Below, in pieces: positions 931-56,369 of a stretch of DNA of 64,000 nucleotides (the first letter of the stretch is position 1; every line of letters starts with the position of its first letter). The notes under the pieces were generated by a model. It made no database searches and was not told the origin of the DNA. It saw nothing but the letters and a program-made list of their open reading frames with translations. Source of the DNA: Rikenellaceae bacterium (GTDB lineage Bacteria > Bacteroidota > Bacteroidia > Bacteroidales > Rikenellaceae); NCBI GenBank assembly GCA_031548435.1, contig JAVBRA010000007.1, positions 67,955 through 131,954 of the forward strand. The letters run 5' to 3'. The position numbers were made by a program, and so were the translations under genes.

Positions 931-1005
931 CGGGGTGTAGCGCAGTCCGGTTAGCGCACCTGCTTTGGGAGCAGGGGGTCGTGGGTTCGAATCCCGCTAC
1001 CCCGA
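931..1005 (+). tRNA. tRNA-Pro (anticodon TGG)
   Basis: 75-nt cloverleaf read by eye. Acceptor CGGGGTG pairs with TACCCCG (one G-U). Anticodon stem CCTGC/GCAGG has loop TTTGGGA. T-loop is GGTTCGAATCC and the discriminator is A. Confidence 0.9.
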
Positions 1006-1006
1006 C
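961..1006 (+). repeat. attL: 46-bp direct repeat (3' half of tRNA-Pro, from the anticodon loop to the end)
   Basis: Identical 46-mer 'tgctttgggagcagggggtcgtgggttcgaatcccgctaccccgac' recurs at 16908-16953. Flanking bases differ on both sides. Confidence 0.9.
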
Positions 1007-1017
1007 GAATGAAAATC

Positions 1018-1056
1018 AAGAAGTTGCGATATTAGTCGCAACTTCTTTTATTTTTT
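1018..1056 (+). terminator. Rho-independent terminator after tRNA-Pro (supplied by the island)
   Basis: Stem aagaagttgcga / tcgcaacttctt with loop tattag, followed by a T-rich run. Confidence 0.7.
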
Positions 1057-1057
1057 G

Positions 1058-1077
1058 TTTGCACACGATTTGCACAC
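1058..1077 (+). promoter_or_regulatory. Two direct TTTGCACAC copies 11 bp apart (candidate integrase arm-type sites, left end)
   Basis: tttgcacac at 1058-1066 and 1069-1077. The same 9-mer pair occurs at 16761-16782 near the other island end. Confidence 0.45.
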
Positions 1078-1290
1078 AACTCGGGCGATCGTCTGCTTTT
1101 TTATCTTTACGTATGCCCGCCATATTGTCCAAACAGATTGAGACGCAGGGGGGCAAAATAAGGATCTTTTTTTCTGACTAAACAGCGCTCCTTACCAATA
1201 TACATGAATCATTGATTGCAGATCGATTCTCGCGTGCTACAATACGACTGACACCGCATTGGCTTTTTCATCACTTTGAATCCCATTATC

Positions 1291-1674
1291 TCAATTTTTC
1301 TTCCATGTAAACAGCATATCGAGAAGTCGGATTTTCCCGGTGTGTATTTTTCCGCGAATATGCTTCTCCAATGAGGATTCCGTGATCGACAATTCCATCA
1401 ACCCAGCCTCTTTGTCGAACGATACGACACCGAAGTCCACATCCTTATCCTCGATACGAACGACAATCTTCTCTCCCGGATGCAACTCAAAACCACTGGT
1501 CACCCCAACAGTCCCCGCATACGACACCGAATCCATGCGGATAAGGTCTATTTCGACAACCCGGTCTGTTTTTATCGAATGCATCATAAAATAGATGCCG
1601 GCAAGCAATACCACCAGCATAATCGATATGCCGTATTTTACGACAAATGTTGTTTTATGTACCCTCAGTCCCAT
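1291..1674 (-). CDS. Small membrane-anchored protein, possibly a short HlyD-like accessory of the ABC exporter
   Basis: 127 aa with an N-terminal hydrophobic helix 'ISIMLVVLLAGIYFMM'. Its start shares base 1674 with the stop of the upstream ABC gene (coupled). Beta-rich segment 'GTVGVTSGFELHPGEKIVVRIED'. Confidence 0.4.
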   Translation of the reverse strand: MGLRVHKTTFVVKYGISIMLVVLLAGIYFMMHSIKTDRVVEIDLIRMDSVSYAGTVGVTSGFELHPGEKIVVRIEDKDVDFGVVSFDKEAGLMELSITESSLEKHIRGKIHTGKIRLLDMLFTWKKN

Positions 1675-3869: not shown

Positions 3870-5176
3870 TTATTTTTTTCTGCATCGGCTTTGTTGGTCA
3901 TAATGGAAACCCGATCGACCATCGCCTCGTATTTATCTTCTTCTGTCATTCCCAGAGGACATACATTTTCCTCGAAAGCTTCCAACTGGTGTTGGGTGCA
4001 TCCTCCTTTGCACAATGGAAGAATTTTGCATTTCAAACAACTGTCGTTTATGAATTTGCATTCCATTCGATCGTCATACCGTTCATTAAACGAAATTGTT
4101 CCGTCGGTATTTAAAACACCCTCCCGTATTTCCTTTACGAAATCACGGGCAGTACATTTGAATACGTTTCCATCATAATTAATTATGTGGCCGTTGGGCG
4201 TATCTGCATAACAAACAGAATCGGAGAATTCGTTGATCAGCGACATATTCTTTATTCCGCATTCCGCAACACGCTCCCCCATTTTCCCGACCAATTTCTT
4301 CATTCCTTCCGAGTCTTCTGCCTGCCATATTTTTTTGAACATGAAAGATAAATTATCCTTCCATTTCTCGTCGACATCCGAGAATTCATCGATCAAATCC
4401 TCGAACCCCTCTGCCGTATCTTCCGAATAATTGCATCGCACTAATATAGTCATTCCTTTCGACAGTGCGTATTTTATGTTTTCAATGGAGATGTCATAGG
4501 CAGATTTATCGTTCCCGGGCAACCGTTTTATCTTATTATGCTTCTCCCTGTTTCCGTCGAAAGGGACCTGAAAAAAGACCTTCTTTCCCAAAGTTGCCAG
4601 CCGGTCGATCTTTTTCTTGTCCAACAATGTAGCGTTGGTGGTGAACATGATCGGCAAATTACACCCGGTTTGATCGCATACTTTAACCGCATATTCAATA
4701 ATAGGCAGGATAGAAGTATCAAATCTCATGAGCGGTTCTCCTCCGAAGAAAGACAACTGTAAGGTCTTATACTCGCTTCCTTTTTGCTCGATCAGCAATT
4801 CAATCGACTTTCGGACTTCCTCCGTCATGATGCTGTCACTAACATGGGACTCGTAACAATACCAGCATTTGAGATTGCAATCCATTGTCGGGTTGATAAC
4901 CAGATTATAAAAATTTTTGGAATTATTTGCCATCTGGATGGAATCCATAACCCCCTGTTGTTCTTCTCCTATTGAACCCACTACAAATTTCTTCCCAACG
5001 AGATAGGCATAAAATTCCGGATGAATGTTCTGAAGGTCGTCCAGATGATCGATATGTTCGTCGACCAATTGCCTGAGTTCTGGAACAATGGCCATGATTT
5101 CCGCCGTTCTGCAGTTGAAAATAACGTGCCGCCCGTCGAGGTTGTCTATCGCAAAGTTATAATGACTCCATTTCAT
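3848..5176 (-). CDS. Radical SAM / SPASM-type peptide-modifying enzyme
   Basis: 442 aa. 'MDCNLKCWYCYE' is the CX3CX2C cluster motif. A 'FFGGEPL' segment follows. C-terminal Cys-rich block 'CKFINDSCLKCKILPLCKGGCTQH' plus upstream 'CYAD...CTARD' is consistent with auxiliary clusters. There is a ~95-aa N-terminal extension. Confidence 0.85.
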   Translation of the reverse strand: MKWSHYNFAIDNLDGRHVIFNCRTAEIMAIVPELRQLVDEHIDHLDDLQNIHPEFYAYLVGKKFVVGSIGEEQQGVMDSIQMANNSKNFYNLVINPTMDCNLKCWYCYESHVSDSIMTEEVRKSIELLIEQKGSEYKTLQLSFFGGEPLMRFDTSILPIIEYAVKVCDQTGCNLPIMFTTNATLLDKKKIDRLATLGKKVFFQVPFDGNREKHNKIKRLPGNDKSAYDISIENIKYALSKGMTILVRCNYSEDTAEGFEDLIDEFSDVDEKWKDNLSFMFKKIWQAEDSEGMKKLVGKMGERVAECGIKNMSLINEFSDSVCYADTPNGHIINYDGNVFKCTARDFVKEIREGVLNTDGTISFNERYDDRMECKFINDSCLKCKILPLCKGGCTQHQLEAFEENVCPLGMTEEDKYEAMVDRVSIMTNKADAEKNKWIRKGD

Positions 5177-5271
5177 AAAATTGTGGGATTAGTTGTTTCC
5201 GAGAATGAGGCACTCTGTTTTAATAGAGATCCGACAGAGTGCCTCATGATTTGCGTCACATTGTTAATTTA

Positions 5272-5568
5272 CTACTCAGGTTCGGATGTTCCAGTGGGCG
5301 TAGGAGTCGGCGTGGGAGCGGCAGTAGTTTCGCCACAATGGGTTGTGCACTGACTTTTTTTGCACTTCGTGCCTCCATTGAGATTAACGGGACAGTTGGT
5401 ATTACAAGTGACAAGGCAAATACCGTAATTGGCGTTTTCCGCCTCTGCCGCAGCCATTAGAGGTTCGAACGATGAGACCTCTCCAAAACCACCTTTTAAG
5501 AGATGTTCTTCGTTTTTTGTCAAAGGAGTCAGGGCCACCTCCAGATCCATTAATTTCTTTTGTTCCAT
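5272..5568 (-). CDS. Precursor peptide A (double-glycine leader; 6-Cys core; Thr/Pro-rich tail)
   Basis: 98 aa. The leader 'MEQKKLMDLEVALTPLTKNEEHLLKGG' fits the LxxxExLxxGG type. Core Cys spacing is C-x3-C-x3-C-x9-C-x4-C-x3-C. The tail is 'ETTAAPTPTPTPTGTSEPE'. A paralogous leader is at 6544-6810. Confidence 0.8.
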   Translation of the reverse strand: MEQKKLMDLEVALTPLTKNEEHLLKGGFGEVSSFEPLMAAAEAENANYGICLVTCNTNCPVNLNGGTKCKKSQCTTHCGETTAAPTPTPTPTGTSEPE

Positions 5569-5667
5569 AGCATTAGAATTAGCTTTTCTCTACTCATTTC
5601 AGGGCTTTTCGAGATACTCCCATAATTTCTGCAACCGGTTTGTTTCTTCATTCGGATCGGAACTTTA

Positions 5668-6544
5668 GAGGTTGTTTTAAAATTTAGTTAGGTAATCGCT
5701 TGATCATCAATTTAATCATCGCGAGGTATATCATGTTTTCTTCGTATTTTGTTTCGAACTCATATTCCCGGCTCAATCTTCGGTACGACTCCCACCAGGC
5801 AAATGTCCGTTCCACCACCCACCGCTTGGGCAAGGGTTTGAATTTATTGGATTTATCCTTGCGAAGCGTAATCTTCAGCGTGCACTTTAACTCCTTCTTT
5901 ACAACGTCCTTTAACTCACCGCTATAGCCACCGTCTGCATAAATCTTTTTCATCCGCCCGAACTCCGGTTTCAACTGTCCCATCACATCTATCGCCGCCT
6001 TGCTGTCGTGCCGATTGGCCGGATGAACTTTCACCGCCAACATCAACCCTTGGGCATCAGTGATGATATGCCGTTTGCGGCCTTTCACACGTTTACCACC
6101 GTCGATACCGCGCTCCTTACCGCGATATGTGCCATGAACACTTTGAGAGTCAATAATTCCCACACTCGGCGAAGTCTCCTTTCCTGCGCGGCGGCGAAGC
6201 AAGCCTCGCAAATAATCGTGTACCTTTTTGAAAGTCCCGGCAAGGCTCCATTTGCGGAAGTAGTAGTAAACAGATTGCCATGCCGGAAAATCTCCGGGCA
6301 ACTGATGCCACTGACAGCCGGTCTTTAACAGGTAGAAGATCGCATCAAATATCTCTTTCAATGAACGTCGGCGCTTGCGTTTGTCGCCAATTATGCCTAA
6401 TATTGTCGCGTATTGGTTATCGGTCAGATTGCTCGGATATTGTTTTTTCATTCTTTATGTGGTTGAGAACTATAAAGATACGAAAAATATCCGACAATCT
6501 ACTGATAATCAATTATTTATATCTGTAAATTTCAAAACAACCTC
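5668..6544 (-). mobile_element. IS5-family insertion sequence (~0.88 kb)
   Basis: 19-bp terminal inverted repeats match 18/19: 5668-5686 gaggttgttttaaaattta versus the reverse complement of 6526-6544. Flanking TA dinucleotides (5666-5667 and 6545-6546) are the likely target duplication. There is a single DDE transposase ORF. Confidence 0.8.
5684..6451 (-). CDS. IS5/IS4-superfamily DDE transposase
   Basis: 255 aa. N-terminal 'LTDNQYATILGII...IFDAIFYLLKTGCQWHQLP' is a DUF4096-like HTH typical of IS5-family transposases. C-terminal 'YADGGYSG' and 'VVERTFAWWESYRRL' follow. The stop codon lies inside the left inverted repeat. Confidence 0.85.
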   Translation of the reverse strand: MKKQYPSNLTDNQYATILGIIGDKRKRRRSLKEIFDAIFYLLKTGCQWHQLPGDFPAWQSVYYYFRKWSLAGTFKKVHDYLRGLLRRRAGKETSPSVGIIDSQSVHGTYRGKERGIDGGKRVKGRKRHIITDAQGLMLAVKVHPANRHDSKAAIDVMGQLKPEFGRMKKIYADGGYSGELKDVVKKELKCTLKITLRKDKSNKFKPLPKRWVVERTFAWWESYRRLSREYEFETKYEENMIYLAMIKLMIKRLPN

Positions 6545-6810
6545 TAAGATTTCTCTGTCGACGAGTTGCTACTCCCAGATCCGTTGGATTTACATCTTCT
6601 TTTTTTCTTTTTCGTATCTTCCGTTCCGGCTCCATTGCGACAAGTGCGGAAGCAAATCAGCGCATTGGTGTTGGTCTTAGTCTCTCTTTTTGCCGTTGCA
6701 GCGGGTTGAAATGAAGCGACTTCACCAAACCCTCCCTTCAACAGACGTTCTTCGTTTTTTGCCATAGGCATCAGGTTCACCTCCAGATCCATTAATTTTT
6801 TTGGTTTCAT
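6544..6810 (-). CDS. Precursor peptide B (double-glycine leader; 3-Cys basic core; Ser-rich tail)
   Basis: 88 aa. The leader 'MKPKKLMDLEVNLMPMAKNEERLLKGGFGEVASFQP' is near-identical to precursor A through about residue 36. The core is 'ALICFRTCRNGAGTEDTKKKKRRC' and the tail is 'KSNGSGSSNSSTEKS'. Confidence 0.75.
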   Translation of the reverse strand: MKPKKLMDLEVNLMPMAKNEERLLKGGFGEVASFQPAATAKRETKTNTNALICFRTCRNGAGTEDTKKKKRRCKSNGSGSSNSSTEKS

Positions 6811-6853
6811 AATCTAAAGTTTAATTGTTTAGTTACTTGTACAACTCCGATAT

Positions 6854-9250
6854 TTATTCGAGCGGCGCTCCAAAGGATTTCCGTTCAGCGTCGACTTTCT
6901 TGGCTTTCTTATCCCCTCCGCTTTTAAAACTGTAACTTAGGGAAAAATTCAGCGAGGTAACCGGGGACACGGTTCGTGTCTGATAGTTGTAGTAATCGTT
7001 GTGAATGCCCGAGGTATCCGAATTCTTGAAAAGAATGCTACTGATCCCAACACCTGCCAGCAGTCTGTTCTTGAATAGAAATTTATAGCCGCTGATATCG
7101 ATACCGTAGCTGGGCGTTCTTTTGTAATATCCTTCTTCCTGCCCGGTAGCCCCTCTGAACGACAGGCTGCCGCCCCAATTCCCCTTGAACGAGAACGAGT
7201 TGTTGATAGACAGTCGTGCCACATTGCCGGTATAATCGACATCCGGATTCGAGGTCTTCATAATCGCGAACGCTGCCTGCGGATTCATGCTCCACCATTT
7301 GCATATCTTCACGGGATAGCCGGTGCCGAACATATGGGCAACCTGTCTGCCTGCATTTACCGGCATGACGTAAGTGACGAGCGGATCGGAGGCATCGGTG
7401 AAGGTTTTAGGAAAGACCACATCGTCTATCCGATAATAGTTATAATAGACCTGCCATTTGTTCCGAAGCACGTAGCTCACCTGCAACAGATGCCGGCTGT
7501 CCGGTTTCAGCAGCGGATTTCCGACAGAATACGAGTGGTCGGACAAGGGAATGACGACCGGGTTAAAGAGATTATAGGTCGGAAACGACAGGGCCCGTTT
7601 GTAGGTGACATTCACCAATGTACCCTTCTGGCGATTGAAAAAACAGGCGATCCCCACATCGGGATAGATCCCGAAGTAATTCCGGTTTACGACCGTATCT
7701 TCCTTGAAGGAAGTGAACCGGGTGGTGTTCCATGTGGCATTCAGCCCCGCATTGAACGAGAAACGCCCGATTTCCGAAATGTATTCGGCATAGCAGTTAA
7801 AGTCTTGTCCGTTGTTGGTGAAATCGTCGCTCTGGCCGGAATCGGCCACCCAATTCCCGGATGTGTAGTTCTGATAAACCAGCTTGCCGGTGGTGTTGCC
7901 CGATGCGAAATAGCCGCCGAAGTCCAGTTCGGAATTCCCAACCATCACTTCGAAATGTACCTCGGCATTAAACAGGTCGTCCGGGTTCATATCGCGCATA
8001 TCCCGGGTTTGCGACAGGTCGGAATCGCCGGAGACCAATGAGGTATAGTCGTAGGTGTAACACCCGTTGTTTCGTACCGGTGTATTGGTGTAATCCACCT
8101 GAATGTTCATATTGGAGCCTTCCTCGTCCAGATCCAACAGGTAGTTCAGCACGCCGTAATACTCGTCGGTGCGGTTGTTCACCTGCGATTTATACGACGT
8201 CCACTCGAGCGGCGACCCCGAATAGTCGGATGTTTCGGAGAGGGAGCGCCCGGACAAATCGCTGCGGGTGCCGTAGTAACTGAAATTCCCGCCCAGGGAT
8301 TGTTTCTCATCTATATCGTAGACAAGGCTCAGGATATTCGAGAACGTATTGGTGCCGGTGGTGTTGGCCACATCGGTGTTCATCCTGACCTGGGAGCCGG
8401 GATAATCCCCGTCGGTGACGCGCTCGGTGAAATTGTCGGAATAGGAATAGCCCGCCTGATCGTAGACGCTCCATTTCTTGTACCTGTAATTGATCGTTCC
8501 GGTGATGCTTTCGCTCTTAAAACCGTTTTCGTCGACCGAGAGGTTGTTGTTCACATTGCCGTAATACCCGTTCTCCAGATTCTTCTTCAGTCTGATTTTT
8601 ATGACCCCACCGACCACCTGGGCGCCGTATGCGCTGCCGGCGACAGGAGTGACCTCGATGCTTTCGATGTCCTCGGCCCGGATACCGCCCAGTTCGTCGT
8701 TCCGTTTCAGCTTGCGCCCGTTGAGGTACACCCGGTCGACGTTGAGGCCATTGACCTTCAGCCCCTCGTGCATGGTAACTCCCGGAAGGAAACCCAATAC
8801 CCCATAAGCCGACTTGCCTTTGGCAATGGGATTGCCCTGCATACTGACAGTATACTTGTTCGACATCCGCCGGATGAATTCGCCCTTTACGACCACCTCG
8901 TCGATTTTAACGGCTTTGGGGCTCAGACGGATGGTATCCAGGGTGATGTTATGATCCAGCCGGAGCGTCTGCGAGTATTCCTCGTAAGCCATGTGCGTAA
9001 CCCGGAAAACATAGTCGCCGGTTTCGATGCCGCTGATAACAAAACCGCCATCCTGACCGGAGAACACCCCGCCTACCGTCGGCCCGCCCGAGGCGCGTTC
9101 GACGGTCGCGGAACACAGGCCAAGCACCTCTCCGGTTGCAGACGTCACAACCCCCGACAGGGAATGTTTCTGGGTATTCTGCCCCCATGCTGAAGTTGAA
9201 ATACAGAAACACACACACCAGACAAAAATCTTTCGTATAATTTTCCCCAT
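6854..9250 (-). CDS. TonB-dependent-receptor-type outer membrane beta-barrel with an N-terminal carboxypeptidase-regulatory-like domain
   Basis: 798 aa. Signal peptide 'VWCVCFCISTSAWGQ'. 'LSGVVTSATGEVLGLCSATV...GGFVISGIETGDYVFRVTHMAY' is CarbopepD_reg-like. The plug-like segment is 'DRVYLNGRKL...IESIEVTPVAGSAYGAQVVGGVIKIRLKK'. A long Tyr/Asn/Gly-rich barrel follows. Confidence 0.75.
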   Translation of the reverse strand: MGKIIRKIFVWCVCFCISTSAWGQNTQKHSLSGVVTSATGEVLGLCSATVERASGGPTVGGVFSGQDGGFVISGIETGDYVFRVTHMAYEEYSQTLRLDHNITLDTIRLSPKAVKIDEVVVKGEFIRRMSNKYTVSMQGNPIAKGKSAYGVLGFLPGVTMHEGLKVNGLNVDRVYLNGRKLKRNDELGGIRAEDIESIEVTPVAGSAYGAQVVGGVIKIRLKKNLENGYYGNVNNNLSVDENGFKSESITGTINYRYKKWSVYDQAGYSYSDNFTERVTDGDYPGSQVRMNTDVANTTGTNTFSNILSLVYDIDEKQSLGGNFSYYGTRSDLSGRSLSETSDYSGSPLEWTSYKSQVNNRTDEYYGVLNYLLDLDEEGSNMNIQVDYTNTPVRNNGCYTYDYTSLVSGDSDLSQTRDMRDMNPDDLFNAEVHFEVMVGNSELDFGGYFASGNTTGKLVYQNYTSGNWVADSGQSDDFTNNGQDFNCYAEYISEIGRFSFNAGLNATWNTTRFTSFKEDTVVNRNYFGIYPDVGIACFFNRQKGTLVNVTYKRALSFPTYNLFNPVVIPLSDHSYSVGNPLLKPDSRHLLQVSYVLRNKWQVYYNYYRIDDVVFPKTFTDASDPLVTYVMPVNAGRQVAHMFGTGYPVKICKWWSMNPQAAFAIMKTSNPDVDYTGNVARLSINNSFSFKGNWGGSLSFRGATGQEEGYYKRTPSYGIDISGYKFLFKNRLLAGVGISSILFKNSDTSGIHNDYYNYQTRTVSPVTSLNFSLSYSFKSGGDKKAKKVDAERKSFGAPLE

Positions 9251-9255
9251 ACCCG

Positions 9256-10203
9256 TTATTTGGCGTTTATTTTATCGGCCACAGCGTCATTGATTCTGCA
9301 AAAATTGTCGTATCCGGCCGTAAGTATATCCGAATAATAGCCCCGGAGATTTTCGACTTCCTCTTGCCGTTCCTTCATCATCTCCGCGGCCCGGACATAA
9401 TTGATGTAATTGATTCCTTTCATTGCCCGAATGACTTTCCTCCTCAACACTTCCGGCAATACGGTTTCGGCAATGAACATTTTGTTGTAGAAAATCTCCA
9501 GGCTATCCATCACGTAAGGAAATTTATTCCGGAATAGATGACCTATCACCACATCGGTCAAGAGGCGGCATCGCCCTCCTTCCATCCATGCCTTCAGGCT
9601 GATGTATGCTTCTTCACATCCATACAGCCTCAGACCCTCGAATCCTCGCAAATAATTCCAATACTCCTTGGTGGCGGCATAGCATGCCCCCAGTACACAG
9701 GGAACATCGACGAGGTTCGTATCCGAATAGATGTTATAGGTCACCCAAGCCACATTGACTACTGCCCGTTCTTTCGGCTCCAGAGCCTTAAAGTAGGCCG
9801 CATAAGGAGGTTCGCATCCGGTTTCCGCTTTTTTATCAAAACTCCACGATTTGCAGCGGCAACAATAGATCGCTCTTGGATCTTCTTTTATCGCGCTCAC
9901 GATTTTAAGCCACCAGTCGTCATGATAAAACCGCATATGCCCGTCTATAACCAGAAAATAAGGAGTCTGACAAGCATTGATTCCGGCCTGTTTGGCCGGG
10001 CCGCTTCCCAGGCGATCCGAATGTTCGACATAAAGCGTCCCGTATCGTTCAGCCACCGACTTATAATCAAATCCGTCATCCGAGGCATCGTTTACAAGAA
10101 CAATATCCACAGCGTCTCCGGCCGTTCTCTTAATCTCTCTTATGGTGATTTCAACTTCGTTCCCTTCGTTGAGAAAAGGGATGACTACTGTCAGTTCATT
10201 CAT
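9256..10203 (-). CDS. Glycosyltransferase, polypeptide-GalNAc-transferase-like (GT27/GT2 fold), paralog 1
   Basis: Start moved to 'MNELTVVIPFLNEG', matching its paralog; its ATG overlaps the upstream stop as ATGA. Motifs are 'IVLVNDASDDG', 'FLVIDGHMRF' (DxH) and 'LYGCEEAYISLKAWMEGGRCRLLTDVVIGHLFRNKFPY', which resembles the Gal/GalNAc-T motif WGGEN.E.SFR.W.CGG...GH.FR...PY. Confidence 0.7.
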   Translation of the reverse strand: MNELTVVIPFLNEGNEVEITIREIKRTAGDAVDIVLVNDASDDGFDYKSVAERYGTLYVEHSDRLGSGPAKQAGINACQTPYFLVIDGHMRFYHDDWWLKIVSAIKEDPRAIYCCRCKSWSFDKKAETGCEPPYAAYFKALEPKERAVVNVAWVTYNIYSDTNLVDVPCVLGACYAATKEYWNYLRGFEGLRLYGCEEAYISLKAWMEGGRCRLLTDVVIGHLFRNKFPYVMDSLEIFYNKMFIAETVLPEVLRRKVIRAMKGINYINYVRAAEMMKERQEEVENLRGYYSDILTAGYDNFCRINDAVADKINAK

Positions 10204-11156
10204 ACCAACTGAGACTTCTTTGTTAATTCGGCTATAAACCATTCGTTTATTTTCGAAAACCGATCGTAACCGCCCTTAAACACAGAAGCGTAATATTCTC
10301 TGAACTCATCGACCTTACCCTTAACAGGCTCCATAAGTTCCCTTGCCTGAGCATAATTCACATAATCGACCGCCTTTATGGCCTTTATCACTGGTCGGGC
10401 AATGGACTCGGGTAAAATGGTTTCAGCAATAAACAACTTGTTGTAGAATAACTCCAAATAGTTAACTGCATATGGAAACTTCTTTCGGAAAAGATGCCCT
10501 ATAGTCACGTTATTGACGAGGCGGCATCGCCCGCCTTCCATCCATGCCTTCAGGCTGATATAGGCCTCATCGCAACCATACAGCATCAAGCCATCGACGC
10601 CTCTTAAATAGTTCCAATACTCTTTCGAGGCAGCGTAACTCGCACCCAACACGCACGGAATATCAACAATTTCTGCTCGTGAATGGATATCGCGATTGAT
10701 CCACGTGACATCCAGTATACCTCTCTTCTCGGAATCGAGCAACTTGAGACAGGCGCCATAACCCATGGTTCCTTTTTCTTTCTTCTCTTCAAAATCCCAC
10801 ATCCGGCAGCGAGTACAGTAGATCGCTCTCGGATCGTCTTTGATCGCTTTCACTATCTCGATCCACCAATTATCGTTGTAAAATCGCATATGCCCATCGA
10901 TGATGAGAAGGTAGGGCGTTCGACATAAACGAACACCTATCTCTCTTGAAGATGCGCAACCTTGCCGCATTTGGTTCTCAACATAGCGCGCATTATATTT
11001 CACTGCAACACCACTGTAGTCGAATCCGTCCGTTGAAGCATCGTTGATCATGATCACATCCACCGCCCCACCGGCCGTTCGCCGAATCTCCTTCAGCGTT
11101 GTTTCAACCTCGCCTCCTTCGTTGAGAAAAGAGATGATGACGGTGAGTTCATTCAT
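10200..11156 (-). CDS. Glycosyltransferase, polypeptide-GalNAc-transferase-like, paralog 2
   Basis: 318 aa. 'MNELTVIISFLNEGGEVE', 'VIMINDASTDG', 'LLIIDGHMRF', 'LYGCDEAYISLKAWMEGGRCRLVNNVTIGHLFRKKFPY'. It aligns by eye along its full length with 9256-10203. Confidence 0.7.
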   Translation of the reverse strand: MNELTVIISFLNEGGEVETTLKEIRRTAGGAVDVIMINDASTDGFDYSGVAVKYNARYVENQMRQGCASSREIGVRLCRTPYLLIIDGHMRFYNDNWWIEIVKAIKDDPRAIYCTRCRMWDFEEKKEKGTMGYGACLKLLDSEKRGILDVTWINRDIHSRAEIVDIPCVLGASYAASKEYWNYLRGVDGLMLYGCDEAYISLKAWMEGGRCRLVNNVTIGHLFRKKFPYAVNYLELFYNKLFIAETILPESIARPVIKAIKAVDYVNYAQARELMEPVKGKVDEFREYYASVFKGGYDRFSKINEWFIAELTKKSQLV

Positions 11157-11994
11157 AGCCGAAGTTCAATAATTTGCGTTCGATCAATCCGTCAAATAGA
11201 GAATACGCTTCATTGTAATAGGTTTCTTCACCGGCCTCCCCGTTCAAGTAGGCCTCCCGGAGCCGCAGAAAATTCTTCAACCGGAACCCTCCCGCCCCCA
11301 ATTTGATTATGGACAGGTAATAATCGATTAATTCGTTTTTCACATGTCGTGTTCCTTCCTGCAATTCATCATACCTGGTAGCGGACAGTTGTGCGGGAGA
11401 ACGGCGGTACTTCAACAACACCTCTTGGATGTTTGCGAAACACCCGACTTTGATAATATCACACCACATTTTATAATCATCGGCGAATGAATACCCGTCC
11501 CGGTAGCGGATATCATGGGCATCCAAGATGGATTTTCGTATTATCGTCGACGGATGCGCCATTTGACAGGAGTGAACCATGTTCGATATAATATCTTCAT
11601 GATTCGCACTTGTTTTTATTACTCCCGTTTCGCTTCCAAATAATTCGATCCAACTGCCGCAAACAGCGACATTCGGATTGGACTCCATAAAATCAACCTG
11701 TTTTTGAATGCGCCCGGGAAGCATAACGTCATCGTGATCCATCCTCACAATATACTTTCCCTGGGACAGGTCGATTCCTTTGTTAAGGGTCTCTAGACGG
11801 TTATGATCAAATTGAAATAATTTGATCCGATGGTCATCATAAGATTGTATGATTTCAATCGTGCTGTCGGATGAACCGTCATCCACGATTATCAGCTCAA
11901 AACCCTTGAATGCCTGCAATAATATACTGTCGACAACTTCAATAATGAATGCTTCCGAATTATAGGTAGCCATCAAAACAGAAACATCGCACAT
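11149..11994 (-). CDS. Family 2 glycosyltransferase
   Basis: 281 aa. 'VSVLMATYNSEAFIIEVVDSIL.Q', 'ELIIVDDGSSDST' and 'VRMDHDDV' are the classic GT2 N-terminal Rossmann and DxD pattern. Confidence 0.85.
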   Translation of the reverse strand: MCDVSVLMATYNSEAFIIEVVDSILLQAFKGFELIIVDDGSSDSTIEIIQSYDDHRIKLFQFDHNRLETLNKGIDLSQGKYIVRMDHDDVMLPGRIQKQVDFMESNPNVAVCGSWIELFGSETGVIKTSANHEDIISNMVHSCQMAHPSTIIRKSILDAHDIRYRDGYSFADDYKMWCDIIKVGCFANIQEVLLKYRRSPAQLSATRYDELQEGTRHVKNELIDYYLSIIKLGAGGFRLKNFLRLREAYLNGEAGEETYYNEAYSLFDGLIERKLLNFGYE

Positions 11995-12140
11995 AATGTA
12001 ACCATAAAATTTTATGTAAACATAAAAAAAAAAATCAATTCATGCAACAACAAATGATTAGATATGTTACCGGGAGCCTGAAAAGGGCCGGTTTTTCATC
12101 GTTCCTCTGTTGTAATAAAAACTATACAAGCAACATCCCC

Positions 12141-12170
12141 TTTTAAAACAGCCACCTCAAAGGGTGGCTG
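12141..12170 (-). terminator. Rho-independent terminator separating the island maintenance module from the glycosyltransferase/RiPP operon
   Basis: On the minus strand, stem cagccacc / ggtggctg with loop ctttga is followed by TTTT. It lies just downstream of the 12195 stop. Confidence 0.6.
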
Positions 12171-12194
12171 TTTAGCATTCATCGCATGGAAGAA

Positions 12195-12554
12195 TTACGC
12201 CGGGTCGTCGGAAAGGTATTCTGCCATCTGACTCGGGGTAAGACCGTGGAGGGAGTCTGGGGCATCGGCAGGCAAATGAGATAGCACCTCTGTCATTTGT
12301 GCATGGGTGAGCCGCTCTTTAAAGATGCTGTTTTCTTTGCGCTCCAAATAATCAGCCCATTCTTCATCGGTAAAATAGGGACGTTTCTCTTCGCGCGTCA
12401 GCGGCGGGCCTATGAATGAGATAACGTCAGTAACACGAGGCGGTTCGTCCGACCCGATGATGCTCTCGGACAGGATAATCACAACGCGCTCCTGTGCGCC
12501 CGGTTTGTTCATCATCGACATCATGCGATCGATCTTATCCTTCTTCGTTTCCAT
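12195..12554 (-). CDS. Hypothetical protein (island 1)
   Basis: 119-aa ORF, acidic, with no motif I recognise. It overlaps the upstream ORF by 20 nt, consistent with an operon. Confidence 0.5.
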   Translation of the reverse strand: METKKDKIDRMMSMMNKPGAQERVVIILSESIIGSDEPPRVTDVISFIGPPLTREEKRPYFTDEEWADYLERKENSIFKERLTHAQMTEVLSHLPADAPDSLHGLTPSQMAEYLSDDPA

Positions 12555-12882
12555 TCAGTTGATAAATTTGTTTGATTTTTTCTTCGAGTGCGTCGACCAC
12601 TTTGTCCGGCGCGTTATGCAGAAACCTCTCAAGTGCGGCAAATTCCGCTTCGATCTGCTCCTGTATCGATATGGGCGACATTTTAGGTGTCGTATAGGCC
12701 ATCAGCCGCTCGACGATCGCCCAGCGGTCTTTCGGGTCGAGGGCTTTCAAATCCGCCTCCAGTTGCGTCCGGTTGCCGTCGATGAGTTGCCGTATCCAAT
12801 CTCGCATAGACGCTGTCACCTTGTTCGGTTTTCCTTTCGGGCGCCCTTTCGGATTGCCTGTCTGCCCTTTACGCTGCGCCAT
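12535..12882 (-). CDS. Hypothetical protein with a basic N-terminus 'GNPKGRPKGKPNK' (DUF5681-like, tentative)
   Basis: 115-aa ORF. The G-N-P-x-G-R-P-K-G N-terminal motif is common in small proteins of Bacteroidales mobile elements and phages (from memory). Confidence 0.5.
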   Translation of the reverse strand: MAQRKGQTGNPKGRPKGKPNKVTASMRDWIRQLIDGNRTQLEADLKALDPKDRWAIVERLMAYTTPKMSPISIQEQIEAEFAALERFLHNAPDKVVDALEEKIKQIYQLNGNEEG

Positions 12883-12898
12883 AATATGTAACTCAATG

Positions 12899-13819
12899 TT
12901 ATTTTAGTGTCGTTAGTCCGTAGTTTTTGCAGATTCCGAAGAATGTGCCGATGCCGGTGCGGGAACAGGTTCGAAGGCATCGGTCATACTGCCGGTCGCA
13001 TTCTTTGGGTCTGTATTTCGACGATTGCGCCGAGATGGCATGATACCATCCCCGGCCACTTTCTCCAAATTCTGCGGCTAACGCACGGCCAATTGCATAC
13101 CATTCATCGTAAAAGTCCGTGATGTCGGTACCTGTCTGCTCGATCATATCTACCAGTTTGCGCACCCGGAGAGCCGTTCTATCTGACTCCGACGGCGACG
13201 GGGGTACGTAGCGCATAATAGATTCGGGGGTCAACATCCTGGTAAATACCTCCGCATTGGGATTGTAATAGGGTTGAGGATCGTAACTCGCACCGCGCAA
13301 CCGTGCTATGTCACGGCAGCCAGCATCGACAACCACTCCCCGACCCTGCAATTCGAAAGCGAGAGCAGCAAAGTGTTCGGTATGCCGGTCTGGGTATGCG
13401 ACGCGAAACAACAAAAACATCCCGTTCCCGCCCGCAGACAGACCGGCATACAACAGCCCCGGCAAGTCGACGACCGACGATTTAACGGTCTCCCAATCGC
13501 CGATATCAAGGTTTTGGTCGCCATCAATGTCGATGCAGATGATCCCGGTGTACCGAATAAGGCCGTTGTTGCACCGTTTCGAGAACACTCCGCTCGGGGT
13601 GATCGCCGGAAGCCGCATCTTGAGTACCCGGCGCTCGACTTTATCAGGACACGCCCGGATGGCCTCAACCTGTTTTCGATAGGTTGAGGCGAAGAGGAAG
13701 TCCGCAAGATCAACCTCCCTGCAAGGGCGCGAGTCGGTGTAATTCCGGAATACCGAAACCGAAACTTTTGAGGGCTCCCTCTCTTCTACCTCAGTCATCC
13801 TATTCATATTCCTAATCAT
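12899..13819 (-). CDS. Primase-like replication protein (BT4734/VirE_N-like N-domain plus PriCT-2-like C-domain)
   Basis: 'LPAITPSGVFSKRCNNGLIRYTGIICIDIDGD' resembles the VirE_N/BT4734 family. The C-terminal 'YDEWYAIGRALAAEFGESGRGWYHAISAQSSKYRPKECDRQYDRC' resembles PriCT-2. The start was chosen at an internal Met (13819; 13807 and 13798 are alternatives) to avoid an 82-nt overlap. Confidence 0.55.
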   Translation of the reverse strand: MIRNMNRMTEVEEREPSKVSVSVFRNYTDSRPCREVDLADFLFASTYRKQVEAIRACPDKVERRVLKMRLPAITPSGVFSKRCNNGLIRYTGIICIDIDGDQNLDIGDWETVKSSVVDLPGLLYAGLSAGGNGMFLLFRVAYPDRHTEHFAALAFELQGRGVVVDAGCRDIARLRGASYDPQPYYNPNAEVFTRMLTPESIMRYVPPSPSESDRTALRVRKLVDMIEQTGTDITDFYDEWYAIGRALAAEFGESGRGWYHAISAQSSKYRPKECDRQYDRCLRTCSRTGIGTFFGICKNYGLTTLK

Positions 13820-14141
13820 TATCCTTATCGGGGGTTTTAGGGGTTTTGGAAACCCCGTTGGAGGTTTTTCGTGGTCTGCCTCCAAGTTTACCATAATCAG
13901 CCCCCTTCATGCCGTTTTTACGATTTTTTACGCATGTGGCCTCATAACGCTCATTCATCTCAACCACAAAAGGTTCGATGAACTTCCACGCTACCAGTAC
14001 TGAGCCATGAAGATTTTGCGGGTAAATGCCCTCGAATTGGTATTCCATTAAAACGGTAAGCAACTGGCCTCTCTCCTCAACAGATAATGCTTTGATAGCC
14101 CCCGTATGCTGGCGGTGTATCATCAACGTGTCCTTTCTCAT
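13812..14141 (-). CDS. Hypothetical protein, paralogous to 14138-14377
   Basis: 109 aa. 'LLTVLMEYQFEGIYPQNL' parallels 'LVTALSDYHFHGKQPRDL' in the neighbouring ORF. Basic tail 'GGRPRKTSNG'. Confidence 0.5.
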   Translation of the reverse strand: MRKDTLMIHRQHTGAIKALSVEERGQLLTVLMEYQFEGIYPQNLHGSVLVAWKFIEPFVVEMNERYEATCVKNRKNGMKGADYGKLGGRPRKTSNGVSKTPKTPDKDND

Positions 14142-14377
14142 AACTTGAAGTCTTTGGAGGTGACTATTTTTAGGACACTGAATATGCCCTCCAGCCGGGC
14201 TGGAAGGTCTCGGGGTTGTTTCCCGTGAAAGTGATAATCAGACAGGGCCGTTACAAGCAGCCCGGACTCTTTATCCTCAAGATCCAAGAAGAGATCCTTG
14301 AATTGTTCCGGGATGACGAAGTATTCTTCTTGTTTATTCATAAACACCTCCTTTTTGATCGGAATCAAACAGTTCAT
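14138..14377 (-). CDS. Hypothetical protein, paralogous to 13812-14141
   Basis: 79-aa ORF (alternative start Met13 at 14341). Its stop overlaps the downstream start. Confidence 0.45.
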   Translation of the reverse strand: MNCLIPIKKEVFMNKQEEYFVIPEQFKDLFLDLEDKESGLLVTALSDYHFHGKQPRDLPARLEGIFSVLKIVTSKDFKL

Positions 14378-14386
14378 GTCGGCCTA

Positions 14387-14746
14387 TCATTTACGACGCG
14401 CAGAAGCGGCAATAGTGAGGGCGGCATCGAACTGCCTGGCGCTTTGCCTGACCTTGGATTCGACCCATACAGTCAACTCGACACGAGAAAAGGAGAGTTT
14501 TTTGCCGATCCGTCGGCATGGGATCTTGCCGCCTGCTGTTGCATTGTAAAGACTGCCCCGAGTGAGATAGCATCCTTGTGACGCAAGAAAAGAAAGCGCG
14601 TCATCAACATTAAGAATGTCAGAGGGAGGCTGGGTGTTGCTAACGGGAGGGATCTGCGCCAGTCGCTCGCAGATCAGATCATTAAAGAACTGGCGGGCTT
14701 CAGCGATTGTCATTGCCGCCAAAGGCAGTGATTCATTTGTGGTCAT
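14387..14746 (-). CDS. Excisionase-family helix-turn-helix DNA-binding protein
   Basis: 119 aa. 'LNVDDALSFLASQGCYLTRGSLYNATAGGKIPCRRIGKKLSFSRVELTVWV' fits the HTH_17/excisionase pattern (HTH, then 'IP..R.G.....F...EL..W'). Confidence 0.65.
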   Translation of the reverse strand: MTTNESLPLAAMTIAEARQFFNDLICERLAQIPPVSNTQPPSDILNVDDALSFLASQGCYLTRGSLYNATAGGKIPCRRIGKKLSFSRVELTVWVESKVRQSARQFDAALTIAASARRK

Positions 14747-14918
14747 TCCATCTTAGGATTTGGCAGGCATCATTACCTGCGTTAATAAAATGGGCCGCAT
14801 AACATTACCCACTACGGCCCGTAGTTTTTCCCCTTCGGATGTGGGTGCCCGGCAACTTTACCGGGATTGCTAATGCAAAGATGAAAAATAATTTTAAAAC
14901 CTCAAACGCATTTGCAGA

Positions 14919-14940
14919 AATGAGAACCAAATGAGAACCA
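14919..14940. repeat. Tandem 11-bp repeat aatgagaacca x2
   Basis: Exact tandem duplication in the 205-bp intergenic gap between the excisionase-like gene and ORF 14952-15503. Confidence 0.6.
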
Positions 14941-14951
14941 TGACACCCATC

Positions 14952-15503
14952 CTACTTCAACCGCGATAATATATTTTGCATCTGAAGCACCTCATCTTCG
15001 GTTATTGCCCGCTTGCCGGGAATATCCTTTGCGCCATCATATGCAGACAAATACGTATCAATAAGCCTGTCCGTTCCAATATTGGAAATTCTTTCACGAA
15101 AGCACCCATACATTGACCGCTTGCTTTTTGTCCACGTTATCACCTGCGACTCTCGTAACGCCAACAATAAAATGGAGAACTCCCGGCCTCCTATATCGCT
15201 AAACTTCGATATAACCGGATCAACTAATTCAGGACTCACAAATAGATCCTCCAGCGACAACCCACTATTTCTCTTTTGGACGAGCCCCCGGATTCTATCA
15301 AATGCAGATTGCTTCCACATCAATTCGCGCTTCACAGTGGCTGTTATATGTACATTATTCGGAAGGCTCCCTCCAAAATACTCTTCTGCGATACGTTTTG
15401 ATTCTTCCATTGCCGTCGGGCTATCGTCATAGCCTACCCGATACTCAAAATCATCTTTTGAGATACGCAAATGATCCAATGATAGCCCCTTGTCGTCTTT
15501 CAT
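14952..15503 (-). CDS. Hypothetical protein co-transcribed with the integrase
   Basis: 183-aa ORF. Its ATG overlaps the integrase stop (15500-15503). No recognisable motif. Confidence 0.5.
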   Translation of the reverse strand: MKDDKGLSLDHLRISKDDFEYRVGYDDSPTAMEESKRIAEEYFGGSLPNNVHITATVKRELMWKQSAFDRIRGLVQKRNSGLSLEDLFVSPELVDPVISKFSDIGGREFSILLLALRESQVITWTKSKRSMYGCFRERISNIGTDRLIDTYLSAYDGAKDIPGKRAITEDEVLQMQNILSRLK

Positions 15504-16729
15504 AATCCGAATTTAGTCAGCAATTCCGCATTTTTCACCCGCTCCTCTTTTTCGAATGAAGCGAGGTAGTTCTCCGTGGTTCGGAGATCCTGATGGCCGA
15601 GACTTTCGGATATATAGGCGATATTCGCGCCGGAGCGCTTAAGCACAGTAGCATATGAGTGCCGGGCGGCGTATGTCGAGATAGTACCGATTCCCAGTTG
15701 TTTGCCAATCTCAGCCATGCGCTTATTGATGGCACGGGTCAGTTGCTTGGTTTTTTGCTTGAGCTTCAACGCATCCTCCCTACCATCTAAAACCGGGAAT
15801 ATGTAATTGCTGGGGCAAGATGGATTGCTCCATGTGTCGATGATACGTTTTACCGAATCCGTGATCACAACGCGCACCTCTTTACGGGTTCGGGTGGTGC
15901 GCTCGGTTTTCTGCCGGACAAAGTATATTTCGCCGTTTTCAATATCGCTGTATTTGAGTTTCACAAAATCAGCCATGTTCATACCATTGCATAGATATAG
16001 AAACAGCCACCAATCGCGGTATTTGGCCGTCGCCTTGCTGCCGTCGTCATACCGGGCAATCAGTCCGATTTGTTCAATCGTTAAAGCCATTTTACGGCCT
16101 TCACCAGTTTGGGGAACATACTTGTCCCGTCCGAACGGATATTGCGCCTCTTTGATTACCCCACCGCGTTTGGCTGCATTGAATATCGCGCGGAGTGTTC
16201 TCATGTGTATCGAGATTGTCGTGACCGCTTTGCCCTCAGCCTGCAAAAACTTCTCATAACGCTTCAGCCAGTCAACGCTCACTTTATCGAACCCGATCTT
16301 ATCCCCGGCAAAACGTTCTATACCGCTCAGCACATTCAAATACACATCCATGTTGCCGATCATGTTGTCGGACTTTAATTCAGCTATCTTGGCTCTGAAT
16401 GCAGTATTTACCGTGTCGCTGACCGCTCTTCTGAGTCGTCCGTTGAGGTTGTCGAAAGTAAAGATCCCTTCAGAGGCAAGAGCCTCAACGGCACCGCGCA
16501 CAATGTCAAAGCTATTGCGAATGCTTTCGCGTGTTGCAATAACAGCCCGCACTTTCGAGGCAGGCATCTTTTCCCATTCAGGCTTGGTCATTCGCTTGCC
16601 CGTGCTATAATACTTCCGATCCCGTCGATAGGTGACGCGTACTTTAACCGGGTATTCTCCAACCTCCGTTGATCGCCGGGTATCAAGCATAACCGACACT
16701 GTGATTCCGTCTTTTGAATAATCGTACAT
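15500..16729 (-). CDS. int: Tyrosine site-specific integrase (Bacteroides-type)
   Basis: 409 aa. The C-terminal catalytic region is 'TYAARHSYATVLKRSGANIAYISESLGHQDLRTTENYL' (R..H-x-x-R...H...Y). An N-terminal arm-binding-like beta segment and a SAM-like core are present. It is adjacent to attR. Confidence 0.9.
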   Translation of the reverse strand: MYDYSKDGITVSVMLDTRRSTEVGEYPVKVRVTYRRDRKYYSTGKRMTKPEWEKMPASKVRAVIATRESIRNSFDIVRGAVEALASEGIFTFDNLNGRLRRAVSDTVNTAFRAKIAELKSDNMIGNMDVYLNVLSGIERFAGDKIGFDKVSVDWLKRYEKFLQAEGKAVTTISIHMRTLRAIFNAAKRGGVIKEAQYPFGRDKYVPQTGEGRKMALTIEQIGLIARYDDGSKATAKYRDWWLFLYLCNGMNMADFVKLKYSDIENGEIYFVRQKTERTTRTRKEVRVVITDSVKRIIDTWSNPSCPSNYIFPVLDGREDALKLKQKTKQLTRAINKRMAEIGKQLGIGTISTYAARHSYATVLKRSGANIAYISESLGHQDLRTTENYLASFEKEERVKNAELLTKFGL

Positions 16730-16907: not shown

Positions 16908-16953
16908 TGCTTTGGGAGCAGGGGGTCGTGGGTTCGAATCCCGCTACCCCGAC
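16908..16953 (+). repeat. attR: displaced 3' half of tRNA-Pro (46-bp direct repeat)
   Basis: Identical to 961-1006. There is no 5' half (no acceptor 5' strand or D-arm upstream), so it is not a functional tRNA. Confidence 0.9.
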
Positions 16954-50768: not shown

Positions 50769-50980
50769 ATACGCTTCGCCGGTTTAAAGGGCGGATTCAT
50801 TTCGCCTGCCGGCGTGGCCATCCTTTTTGTCATTGCCCAAAAGCAGCCCAAAAGGCTACGGGCCCGACAAAATTCTCGCTGAAGGTTCCCTATCGGGTGC
50901 AATGACGAGGGATTTGTTATACTCCGCTTCTTCCTTGATAAAAAAACGCAACCAAAAACATCAAGCGAAGGGAATAAACC

Positions 50981-51129
50981 CAGTGTGCAACATTTCACCT
51001 CAAAATGCCGTAAAATCGCCTTTTTAAAAGGGATTAAAACAAAAAAACAGGAACCTACAAAAATTGTAAGTTCCTGCACTTCAGAGCTGATGGCGGGAAT
51101 TGAACCCGCGACCCCTTCCTTACCAAGGA
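50981..51129. repeat. Distal ~149-bp direct repeat of island 2 (partial tRNA-Thr 3' half plus downstream region)
   Basis: Near-identical to 56382-56530 (a few substitutions or 1-nt indels by eye). It includes 45 nt of the tRNA-Thr 3' half (51085-51129) and a copy of the tRNA terminator hairpin. Confidence 0.85.
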
Positions 51130-51292
51130 TATGTGACACAGAAAGATGCGGTTCATTTCCATCTGAAAATCAATCCATTGTAAGGTTCCAAAAAGGCTGA
51201 TTGAAGTGATGTACAACACAGTGTGCAACTACTCGAAATCTTGATGCTCCTGCTGGTTAATATTTTATTTTGATCCTATTATAATGGAAAGG

Positions 51293-51769: not shown

Positions 51770-51816
51770 ATAAATCCATTAAGCGAAAGTTACTACCTGA
51801 TATAATTCCCTGCGAT

Positions 51817-52239: not shown

Positions 52240-52243
52240 AATT

Positions 52244-56329: not shown

Positions 56330-56369
56330 TGTTTTAAGCTCTTTTTGCGAGAACCTCAAAACCTCTGAC

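Follow-up and report, generated by a model that had tools for sequence, protein, structure and literature searches.

The 64,000-nucleotide (nt) window analyzed here, a stretch of contig JAVBRA010000007.1 from a Rikenellaceae bacterium, encodes two adjacent glycosyltransferases (GTs), termed GT-A and GT-B, in a packed row of ten genes that runs on the minus strand from position 11994 down to position 1291. All coordinates are positions in the window, and all genes of the cluster are on this strand. The two proteins are almost certainly GT27-like enzymes, judging from sequence comparison and a predicted structure, i.e. they are related to the polypeptide GalNAc-transferases (ppGalNAc-Ts). Double-glycine-leader precursors, a radical-SAM/SPASM maturase and a C39-peptidase ABC transporter (PCAT) are encoded together in the same row, which is thus a cluster for a PCAT-exported, radical-SAM-modified peptide that is synthesized ribosomally and modified post-translationally (RiPP). 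On balance GT-A and GT-B probably O-glycosylate the Ser/Thr tails of these precursor peptides in the cytoplasm. The cluster suggests a glycosylated ribosomal peptide of a kind that has not been described and that is found widely among gut Bacteroidales.

GT-A (positions 10200–11156) is a soluble protein of 318 amino acids (aa), and GT-B (positions 9256–10203) is its paralog of 315 aa. The two share 176 identities over 306 positions (58%, E-value = 4e-144), in agreement with the first-pass annotation, which had listed two paralogous GTs of these lengths with the smaller one starting at the Met at 10203. The longest open reading frame (ORF) for GT-B spans 9256–10242; the family alignment begins at MNELTV, thus the Met at 10203 is the real start. 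This start overlaps the GT-A stop codon as ATGA. The motif (I/V)NDAS.DG, noted at the outset, is found by regular expression at residue 37 of each protein, in the forms INDASTDG and VNDASDDG. A second motif had been written as (L/V)IDGHMRF. It is present at residue 85 of GT-B as VIDGHMRF, whereas GT-A reads IIDGHMRF, with Ile at the first position. The third, LYGC(E/D)EAYISLKAWMEGGRCRL...IGHLFR.KFPY, is in both proteins, however the spacer between RCRL and IGH is five residues long and not six. The DxH residues of GT-A are D87 and H89, and its C-terminal His is H221.

The likeness to animal GT27 enzymes had been proposed from the DxH motif, the Gal/GalNAc-T motif and the downstream GH.FR, and it is borne out by database searches. 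Single-sequence phmmer comparisons with all Protein Data Bank (PDB) sequences place ppGalNAc-Ts at the head of both lists, with E-values of about 3e-10. In these alignments IDGHM lies opposite DSHCE, DAHCE or DCHCE of T10, TgGalNAc-T3 (6s22), T4 and T12, IGHLFR lies opposite VGHVFR or VGHIYR, and YGC(D/E)E...SLKAWMEGG lies opposite WGGEN...SFRVWQCGG. PDB chain 8uhv, labelled just "Glycosyl transferase", is Toxoplasma GalNAc-T3.

A family profile built from 49 homologs was also searched against PDB sequences. This check had been set beforehand and it returned the ppGalNAc-Ts of GT27, not ordinary GT2 enzymes, over the full domain. Animal GT27 enzymes have E-values from 3.6e-26 to 4.5e-17, the best matches spanning profile positions 7–280, and Toxoplasma GalNAc-T3 follows at 2.7e-14. 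The best chains outside GT27 (the TagF N-terminal domain, GalT1 and other GT2 enzymes) reach 6e-13 or worse and cover positions 1–130 only. The gap between animal GT27 and ordinary GT2 is more than ten orders of magnitude. As a control, the neighbouring 281-aa GT2 finds chondroitin synthase and SpsA as its top PDB matches and not GT27. Pfam model PF00535 matches residues 5–125 of GT-A and GT-B at 57–62 bits, above its cut-off, and this model also covers the N-terminal half of GT27. The C-terminal half of the two proteins has no GT2 match, and the metal motif is DxH, not DxD. Pfam PF02709 (beta4GalT-type C-terminal domain), considered as another possible home, does not match GT-A or GT-B.

The AlphaFold2 model of GT-A has a pLDDT of 96.0 and a pTM of 0.93. 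A Foldseek search of the PDB with this model, another of the checks that had been proposed, gave ppGalNAc-Ts for all of the top 50 structural neighbours. The best match is 6s24_A (E-value = 1.7e-20, TM 0.81 over 327 columns, 17% identity), and target coverage is about half of the 500-aa ppGalNAc-Ts (TMt 0.45–0.5). H221, S201, K203, G208 and G209 are invariant in the 49 homologs, while D87, H89, E197, R224 and G220 are conserved in at least 90% of them, and both window GTs keep every family-invariant residue. Neither the profile search nor the structure search places the enzymes with ordinary GT2 enzymes, and DxH and the C-terminal His are kept family-wide. In GT27 the metal site consists of DxH and a C-terminal His, i.e. 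Asp209, His211 and His344 in mouse T1 (PMC4202792), and within the tree of GT-A-fold enzymes no families other than GT27 and its sister, GT60, have DxH in place of DxD (PMC7185993).

Relatives of GT-A and GT-B are numerous. A word-indexed protein search found 78, several of which are 533–554 aa long and carry a fused LanC-like domain. At E <= 1e-30, 690 cluster representatives (clusters at 50% identity) came out of an exhaustive profile search. When one genome was scanned per species, at least 122 species-level genomes encoded relatives, and nearly all of these are Bacteroidales. The hosts are Rikenellaceae, Prevotellaceae, Bacteroidaceae, Tannerellaceae, Odoribacter, Dysgonomonadaceae and Muribaculaceae, with a few Flavobacteriia. 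Public databases annotate the family as "glycosyltransferase family 2 protein" or "involved in cell wall biosynthesis".

The genes near these relatives were counted within 10 kb at the 80 loci kept (L008–L087); since many of the contigs are short, these are minimum counts. Of the 80 loci, 66 have small double-glycine-leader ORFs, 53 a second GT2, 48 a relative of the window's radical-SAM enzyme and 38 a PCAT. The closest relatives repeat the module of the window. Locus L008 (Rikenellaceae) has the GT, the barrel protein, a precursor and the radical-SAM enzyme, and L010 (Alistipes) has the GT, a precursor, the radical-SAM enzyme, the PCAT and a small membrane protein.

Domain fusions point in the same direction. 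Among 83 homologous ORFs, 29 are stand-alone as in the window, 24 combine the GT27-like domain with a LanC-like domain, and 30, of about 800 aa, have an N-terminal GT2 followed by the GT27-like domain and usually then a LanC-like domain. The N-terminal GT2 domain of the fusions is 30–44% identical to the window's 281-aa GT2. Fusion of this "Rosetta-stone" type places an ordinary GT2 and the GT27-like enzyme in one pathway, and the suggestion in the first-pass annotation that the neighbouring GT2 extends the glycan is supported by these fusions (about 30 of the 83 homologs). The LanC-like fusion points to a peptide pathway. In a predicted structure of one GT27-like/LanC-like fusion (P0024) the GT domain is confident and the C-terminal helical domain has a pLDDT of about 40–80.

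Some related clusters contain other glycan-tailoring genes (L006/L007, positions 1–1700; L005, positions 6876–7979; L025, positions 10933–12420), namely a GT4-type gene with a weak LanC-like match, a UDP-galactopyranose mutase and a GT2-methyltransferase fusion. The LanC-like domain may have a general role in these pathways as a module that recruits substrates for the transferases. The glycans probably differ between clusters, since the mutase is present in one and the methyltransferase-GT2 fusion in another. In Parabacteroides an 87-aa ORF with a SPASM-like Cys motif is located between a precursor gene and an FtsX/MacB-type gene (L001, positions 7384–7647) and looks like what is left of a radical-SAM maturase. 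This cluster retains the GT27-like GT, a GT2, a methyltransferase and the PCAT.

Two precursor genes are present in the window. Precursor 1 (positions 5272–5568) is 98 aa long and has the leader ...LLKGG|FGEV, a core with six Cys and the Thr/Pro tail ETTAAPTPTPTPTGTSEPE. Precursor 2 (positions 6544–6810) is 88 aa long and has the same leader end, a core with three Cys and the Ser-rich tail SNGSGSSNSSTEKS. The tails end exactly in TTAAPTPTPTPTGTSEPE and SNGSGSSNSSTEKS, respectively, as had been described; the tail peptide sequences considered as acceptors are ETTAAPTPTPTPTGTSEPE and KSNGSGSSNSSTEKS. The leader is 27 residues long and its ...E(E/G)xLKGG|FG end is conserved across species. Both precursors align with the "...PLxxxxEGxLKGGFG" leader family and share its tail layout; GT-adjacent precursors consist of the leader, a Cys-rich middle and then a Thr/Pro-rich stretch. 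Neither window precursor matches an NCBIfam or Pfam precursor model, TIGR04149 included, and there is thus no named precursor family for them. TIGR04149 matches two precursors at other GT loci (L021 and L005).

The Thr/Pro-rich stretch recurs at GT loci, e.g. TTTTTTTTTTK (L040), TPPTRPTKPTATPTPTPTPTSTK (L062), TTTTTVPGPVIPPSPTTTTLPTTTTTT (L057), PPITTTTTTTTPSPTGTSS (L076), TPTPEPTPTPPPVTTTTTK (L085), TPDPTTEETTEETTPEEITTPEA (L008), TTGDTTGDTTGDTT (L010), TRPTGTSTPPTPTPPPPPS (L023) and GGTSPVPTCPPVSTWVTPPVTFSPIPLTTPRKE (L005). The leaders in front of it are of at least three unrelated types (EGxLRGGF, FSEETLxSMxMxxVxGG and the TIGR04149-like MKKLxKLKL...IVGG). For comparison, 80 metagenomic loci encoding relatives of the radical-SAM enzyme served as a control set, and one heuristic precursor-calling rule was applied to all loci. 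A precursor core counted as positive if any 10-residue window in it contained at least 6 Thr/Pro. This was so at 25 of the 39 radical-SAM loci that have the GT and at 2 of the 19 that do not. Both GT-less exceptions come from contigs that extend less than 1.6 kb upstream, such that a GT could have gone undetected, and none of the six GT-less loci flanked by at least 3 kb on both sides is positive. The association of Thr/Pro content with the GT has p-values of 4e-6 (Mann-Whitney) and 1e-4 (Fisher), which are rough because the loci are related to one another. A precursor with the same leader and no GT (L088) has no such tail.

This comparison bears on the role of the radical-SAM enzyme. The Thr-rich tails could be substrates of that enzyme, joined in ranthipeptide-like Cys-Thr thioethers, with the GT acting on some other residue or molecule. 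The enzyme is indeed nearest to thioether-forming maturases, including PapB-type enzymes, and a Cys-Thr link is what ranthipeptide maturases of the kind of CteB make (PMC10352776). However the loci compared all share the radical-SAM enzyme, and among them Thr/Pro tails are largely limited to those that bear the GT; Thr/Pro cores are also found where a GT locus shows no radical-SAM gene in the available sequence. The control thus argues against the tail as a radical-SAM substrate, and this explanation is considered very unlikely.

The cores are rich in Cys, which raises the alternative that the GTs S-glycosylate core Cys residues in the manner of the glycocin enzymes SunS and ThuS, the Thr/Pro tails being unrelated linkers. 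GTs in Bacteroidales rSAM + LanC areas have been labelled "peptide S-glycosyltransferase" in a BAGEL4 mining study (PMC10352776). Three GT-adjacent precursors, at L045 (5 nt from the GT), L077 and L061, have Thr/Pro-rich cores without any Cys, at distances of 5–190 nt from the GT, and these argue against S-glycosylation of Cys as the general activity. A further precursor, at L005, has a Thr/Ser/Pro-rich core with a single Cys and follows a GT-LanC fusion. In addition, Thr/Pro content follows GT presence among loci that have Cys-rich cores and the radical-SAM enzyme. All of the strong PDB matches are GT27 enzymes that glycosylate Ser/Thr through oxygen, and no glycocin-type transferase is among the 37 PDB matches at E <= 0.01, from a search library not confirmed to hold one. 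S-glycosylation is therefore quite unlikely here, and O-glycosylation of the tails is the preferred reading.

A third possibility is that the glycan built by the three GTs is attached not to a peptide but, for example, to a lipid carrier, to a polysaccharide or to the cell surface, and that the GTs travel with the cluster for immunity or surface remodelling. The public annotation of the family as cell wall or family 2 enzymes is in line with this, as are the outer-membrane barrel gene that comes after the GTs and the single relative that came out of a search of a plasmid collection. The latter is distant, a 291-aa GT (25% identical to GT-A) on the Cytobacillus spongiae megaplasmid NZ_CP089998 (positions 51156–52031; L169, positions 7992–8867). 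It displays DAH and KHLFRK motifs, and its best PDB matches are ppGalNAc-Ts with an E-value of 7e-21, i.e. stronger than those of the window enzymes. Its neighbours are cotE, other GTs including a "galactosyltransferase-related protein", and a nucleotide-sugar dehydrogenase, a context unconnected with RiPPs and possibly of the spore surface. Yet the tight synteny of the GTs with precursors, radical-SAM enzyme and PCAT recurs in many Bacteroidales families, the fusions are to LanC-like domains typical of peptide pathways, and Thr/Pro content is associated with the GT. The integrative element that carries the cluster (see below) also has no gene for a flippase, a polymerase or an initiating phosphotransferase. 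An acceptor other than the peptide is thus rather unlikely.

Several findings weigh against tail O-glycosylation. About a third of the GT-linked precursors have no clear Thr/Pro run. The tail of precursor 2 is Ser-rich and not Thr/Pro-rich, and no orthologs of this precursor were detected. Bacterial peptides that are secreted commonly have linkers rich in Ser, Thr, Pro and Gly. The loci in the enrichment test are related and not independent, they come from two different collections, and their precursors were called by a heuristic. The non-peptide context in Cytobacillus means that a GT27-like fold alone implies no ribosomal-peptide acceptor. The Gal/GalNAc-T motif WGGENxExSFRxWxCGG aligns with YGC(D/E)EAYISLKAWMEGG, in which the acidic residue, S, W and GG are kept; the WGGEN part is degenerate, with Tyr for Trp, Cys for the second Gly and an almost invariant Glu for Asn, such that the donor sugar is not readable from the sequence. 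Finally, the insertion sequence described below may have disturbed expression of part of the cluster.

The GT-linked precursors of Prevotellaceae and Bacteroidaceae display a further feature, which is absent from the window precursors. After the Thr/Pro run there is a short hydrophobic tail ending in F, L or I, e.g. GFSALF, GVSFLF, GFVFGF, SLSFIF, LCGIL and GLLI (L040, L038, L050, L054, L057, L062, L069, L073, L076, L079–L083 and L085). These tails are reminiscent of the beta-signal of outer-membrane proteins or of a membrane anchor, by analogy.

The rest of the cluster is as follows. The ordinary, inverting-type GT2 of 281 aa (positions 11149–11994), similar to chondroitin synthase and SpsA in the PDB search, overlaps the GT-A start by 8 nt. 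Beyond GT-B an 798-aa outer-membrane beta-barrel protein is encoded (positions 6854–9250; Pfam CarboxypepD_reg and OMP_b-brl_3), a possible component of outer-membrane passage or uptake, with counterparts at L008, L009 and L005. The radical-SAM/SPASM peptide maturase (positions 3848–5176, 442 aa, Pfam Radical_SAM) has as its nearest models thioether-forming and Cys-rich-peptide maturases, including PapB-type ranthipeptide enzymes, and falls below all curated cut-offs. It is followed by the PCAT (positions 1674–3869, 731 aa; Pfam Peptidase_C39, ABC_membrane and ABC_tran) and by a single-pass membrane protein of 127 aa (positions 1291–1674) with a weak match to the MAG1140 family. The last two form a gene pair that is found again in Alistipes L010 (positions 12758–15335), and the PCAT matches the model of the Mycoplasma Mbov_0121-type peptidase-ABC transporter, under its cut-off; the pair may be a conserved exporter with its accessory protein. 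A scan of positions 1000–12600 for sigma-70 promoters gave counts indistinguishable from those of shuffled sequences and is uninformative, since Bacteroidetes use other promoter types, and an Rfam scan of the window found tRNAs only.

The two precursors had been assigned to one operon. This needs a qualification: an 877-bp IS5-family element (positions 5668–6544, minus strand; transposase 5684–6451), with the terminal inverted repeats GAGGTTGTTTTGAAAT, is located between the two precursor genes. The stop codon of precursor 2, TAG, is completed by the first base of the element. If a TA target was duplicated, this stop would originally have been TAA, so the encoded peptide would be unchanged. 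The element may exert polar effects on the genes for precursor 1, the radical-SAM enzyme and the PCAT.

The whole cluster is cargo of an integrative element of about 15.9 kb in a tRNA-Pro gene, with a G + C content lower than that of the flanks. The 3′ end of the tRNA-Pro gene (positions 931–1006, plus strand) forms attL at positions 961–1006, a 46-nt direct repeat that is perfectly matched by attR at positions 16908–16953 (plus strand). The repeats bracket the cluster and a tyrosine integrase gene (positions 15500–16729, minus strand; Arm-DNA-bind_5, Phage_int_SAM_5 and Phage_integrase), together with a primase-like gene (positions 12899–13894) and a helix-turn-helix (HTH) gene (positions 14387–14746). 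A second small integrative element is present at positions 50977–56557, with a G + C content of 40–43%. It has 153-nt direct repeats that are 92% identical (positions 50977–51129 and 56378–56530, the latter overlapping a minus-strand tRNA at 56486–56557) and carries an integrase gene (positions 55115–56359), a TerB-like protein (positions 52244–52741) and ORFs that could not be annotated.

The insertion and the tandem duplication of the GT could be taken as signs of a decaying remnant, i.e. a non-functional locus with GTs that no longer have a substrate. The IS5 element lies between the precursor genes, the cluster is mobile-element cargo, and the exact GT-A protein was found on one contig in a large protein collection and on one further 9.4-kb contig. 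Nevertheless all ten genes are intact, with starts and stops that overlap or nearly abut, both GTs retain every family-invariant residue, and the coding sequence of precursor 2 is unchanged by the insertion. Decay is therefore highly improbable. Since the window copy is cargo of an integrative element, it suggests a horizontally traded trait for competition or colonization.

If the GTs do act on the tails, the pathway may be pictured as follows. GT-A and GT-B would most likely use a UDP-sugar, with a divalent metal coordinated by Asp87, His89 and His221, and one or both of them would attach the first sugar to Ser/Thr of the Thr/Pro- or Ser-rich C-terminal tails, presumably by a retaining (alpha) mechanism. 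The radical-SAM/SPASM enzyme would, like the enzymes of its nearest models, cross-link the Cys-rich middle of the same precursors, and the adjacent ordinary GT2 would add a further sugar, as the fusions suggest. The PCAT would then remove the leader after Gly-Gly and export a presumably bioactive product, and the barrel protein may handle an outer-membrane step. The order of these steps is likewise conjectural.

The proposal of the first-pass annotation that each GT is dedicated to one precursor finds no support. Most related clusters have a single GT. GT-B is nearer than GT-A to the single GT of the closest relatives (65% versus 58% at L008, 59% versus 51% at L010). Sequential or different-sugar roles for the two paralogs are as likely as one enzyme per precursor, because L013 has two such GTs and one detected precursor.

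A more specific version of the proposal is that these are true bacterial mucin-type glycopeptides of gut and rumen Bacteroidales, in which a cytoplasmic, lectin-less branch of the ppGalNAc-Ts places dense alpha-HexNAc (Tn-like) on the Thr/Pro tails of peptides that are cross-linked by the radical-SAM enzyme and exported by the PCAT, and a GT2, fused or adjacent, builds a core-like disaccharide. This version is tentative and somewhat doubtful. If it is true, the products would be a new RiPP class and a bacterial counterpart to the mucin O-glycans of the host, which they might mimic, and it would become possible to test how mucin-type O-glycosylation arose in evolution. Decoration of the tails as such would already mean that the dominant Bacteroidales of gut, mouth and rumen have a large peptide-glycosylation system which has so far been generically annotated. 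It would supply soluble, lectin-free relatives of mucin-initiating enzymes that could serve glycoengineering, open up the prospect of mucin-like glycopeptides displayed or secreted by commensals, and provide a concrete bacterial outgroup for the origin of GT27.

In comparison with GT27 enzymes, e.g. human GalNAc-T2, T4, T10 and T12, the window enzymes share the GT-A fold across all 318 residues (TM 0.8) and the DxH motif. Their C-terminal His likewise stands within GHxFR, and they keep the SF(R/K)xWxxGG segment as well as the acidic residue in the WGGEN motif. The known GT27 enzymes glycosylate Ser/Thr in Thr/Pro-rich stretches, and the same kind of sequence is found in the neighbouring precursors of the window. 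Identity however is just 16–23%, which means ancient divergence and not recent capture; a recent transfer from a eukaryotic host is rejected on this ground. Unlike GT27 enzymes, GT-A and GT-B have no ricin-type lectin domain, i.e. they end at 318 and 315 aa and have no lectin Pfam match, and in many bacterial family members a LanC-like helical domain at the C-terminus or a GT2 domain at the N-terminus is present instead. GT27 enzymes are type II Golgi-lumenal proteins, whereas GT-A and GT-B have no signal anchor or N-terminal extension and are thus predicted to be cytoplasmic. Neither protein has a hydrophobic segment or signal peptide (the maximal 19-residue Kyte-Doolittle mean is <1.0), which fits modification before export by the PCAT. 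As they have no lectin domain and no membrane anchor, the enzymes are termed GT27-like, or "look-alike", and are not filed as members of GT27.

GT60, the family of polypeptide alpha-GlcNAc-transferases known from Dictyostelium and Trypanosoma (Skp1 Gnt1), also has DxH, and its acceptors are Ser/Thr or hydroxyproline of polypeptides. Skp1 Gnt1 is cytoplasmic and has no lectin domain, like the window enzymes. GT60 was considered as a home for GT-A and GT-B and rejected; Pfam PF11397 is unmatched at a whole-protein E limit of 10, and all detectable similarity is to GT27, in searches in which no GT60 structure came up for comparison.

The clusters probably overlap with the Bacteroidales areas of "rSAM + LanC (+ S-glycosyltransferase)" type described in a 2023 mining paper based on BAGEL4 (PMC10352776). 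Common to both are the radical-SAM enzyme, LanC-like proteins or domains without zinc ligands, GTs, double-glycine-leader peptides, the PCAT and an outer-membrane protein. In that study (PMC10352776) the GT is uncharacterized, and there is no mention of likeness to GT27, of Thr/Pro tails or of their association with the GT.

A leader precursor, a dedicated nucleotide-sugar GT encoded in the cluster and a C39 exporter are also common to the glycocins (sublancin/SunS, thurandacin/ThuS, glycocin F and pallidocin), NAI-112, cacaoidin and the glycosylated lasso peptides. Glycocin transferases are GT2 enzymes, described in part in PMC12457901, that place single sugars on defined Cys, Ser or Thr residues of helix-loop-helix peptides in Firmicutes. 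The window system differs from these in having a GT27-like enzyme, a radical-SAM maturase, a second GT and Gram-negative Bacteroidales hosts, with a mucin-like tail of low complexity as the likely acceptor. Ribosomal peptides that bear sugars are rare, and we know of no report of ppGalNAc-T-like enzymes acting on them. In the literature searched, no paper links the two, while GT27 is present without comment in CAZyme tallies of gut and rumen metagenomes. The fold is not new in bacteria, since a lectin-less GT27-like enzyme is also encoded on the Cytobacillus megaplasmid. What is new in comparison with the known systems is the probable recruitment of a GT27-like enzyme to the maturation of ribosomal peptides with mucin-like tails.

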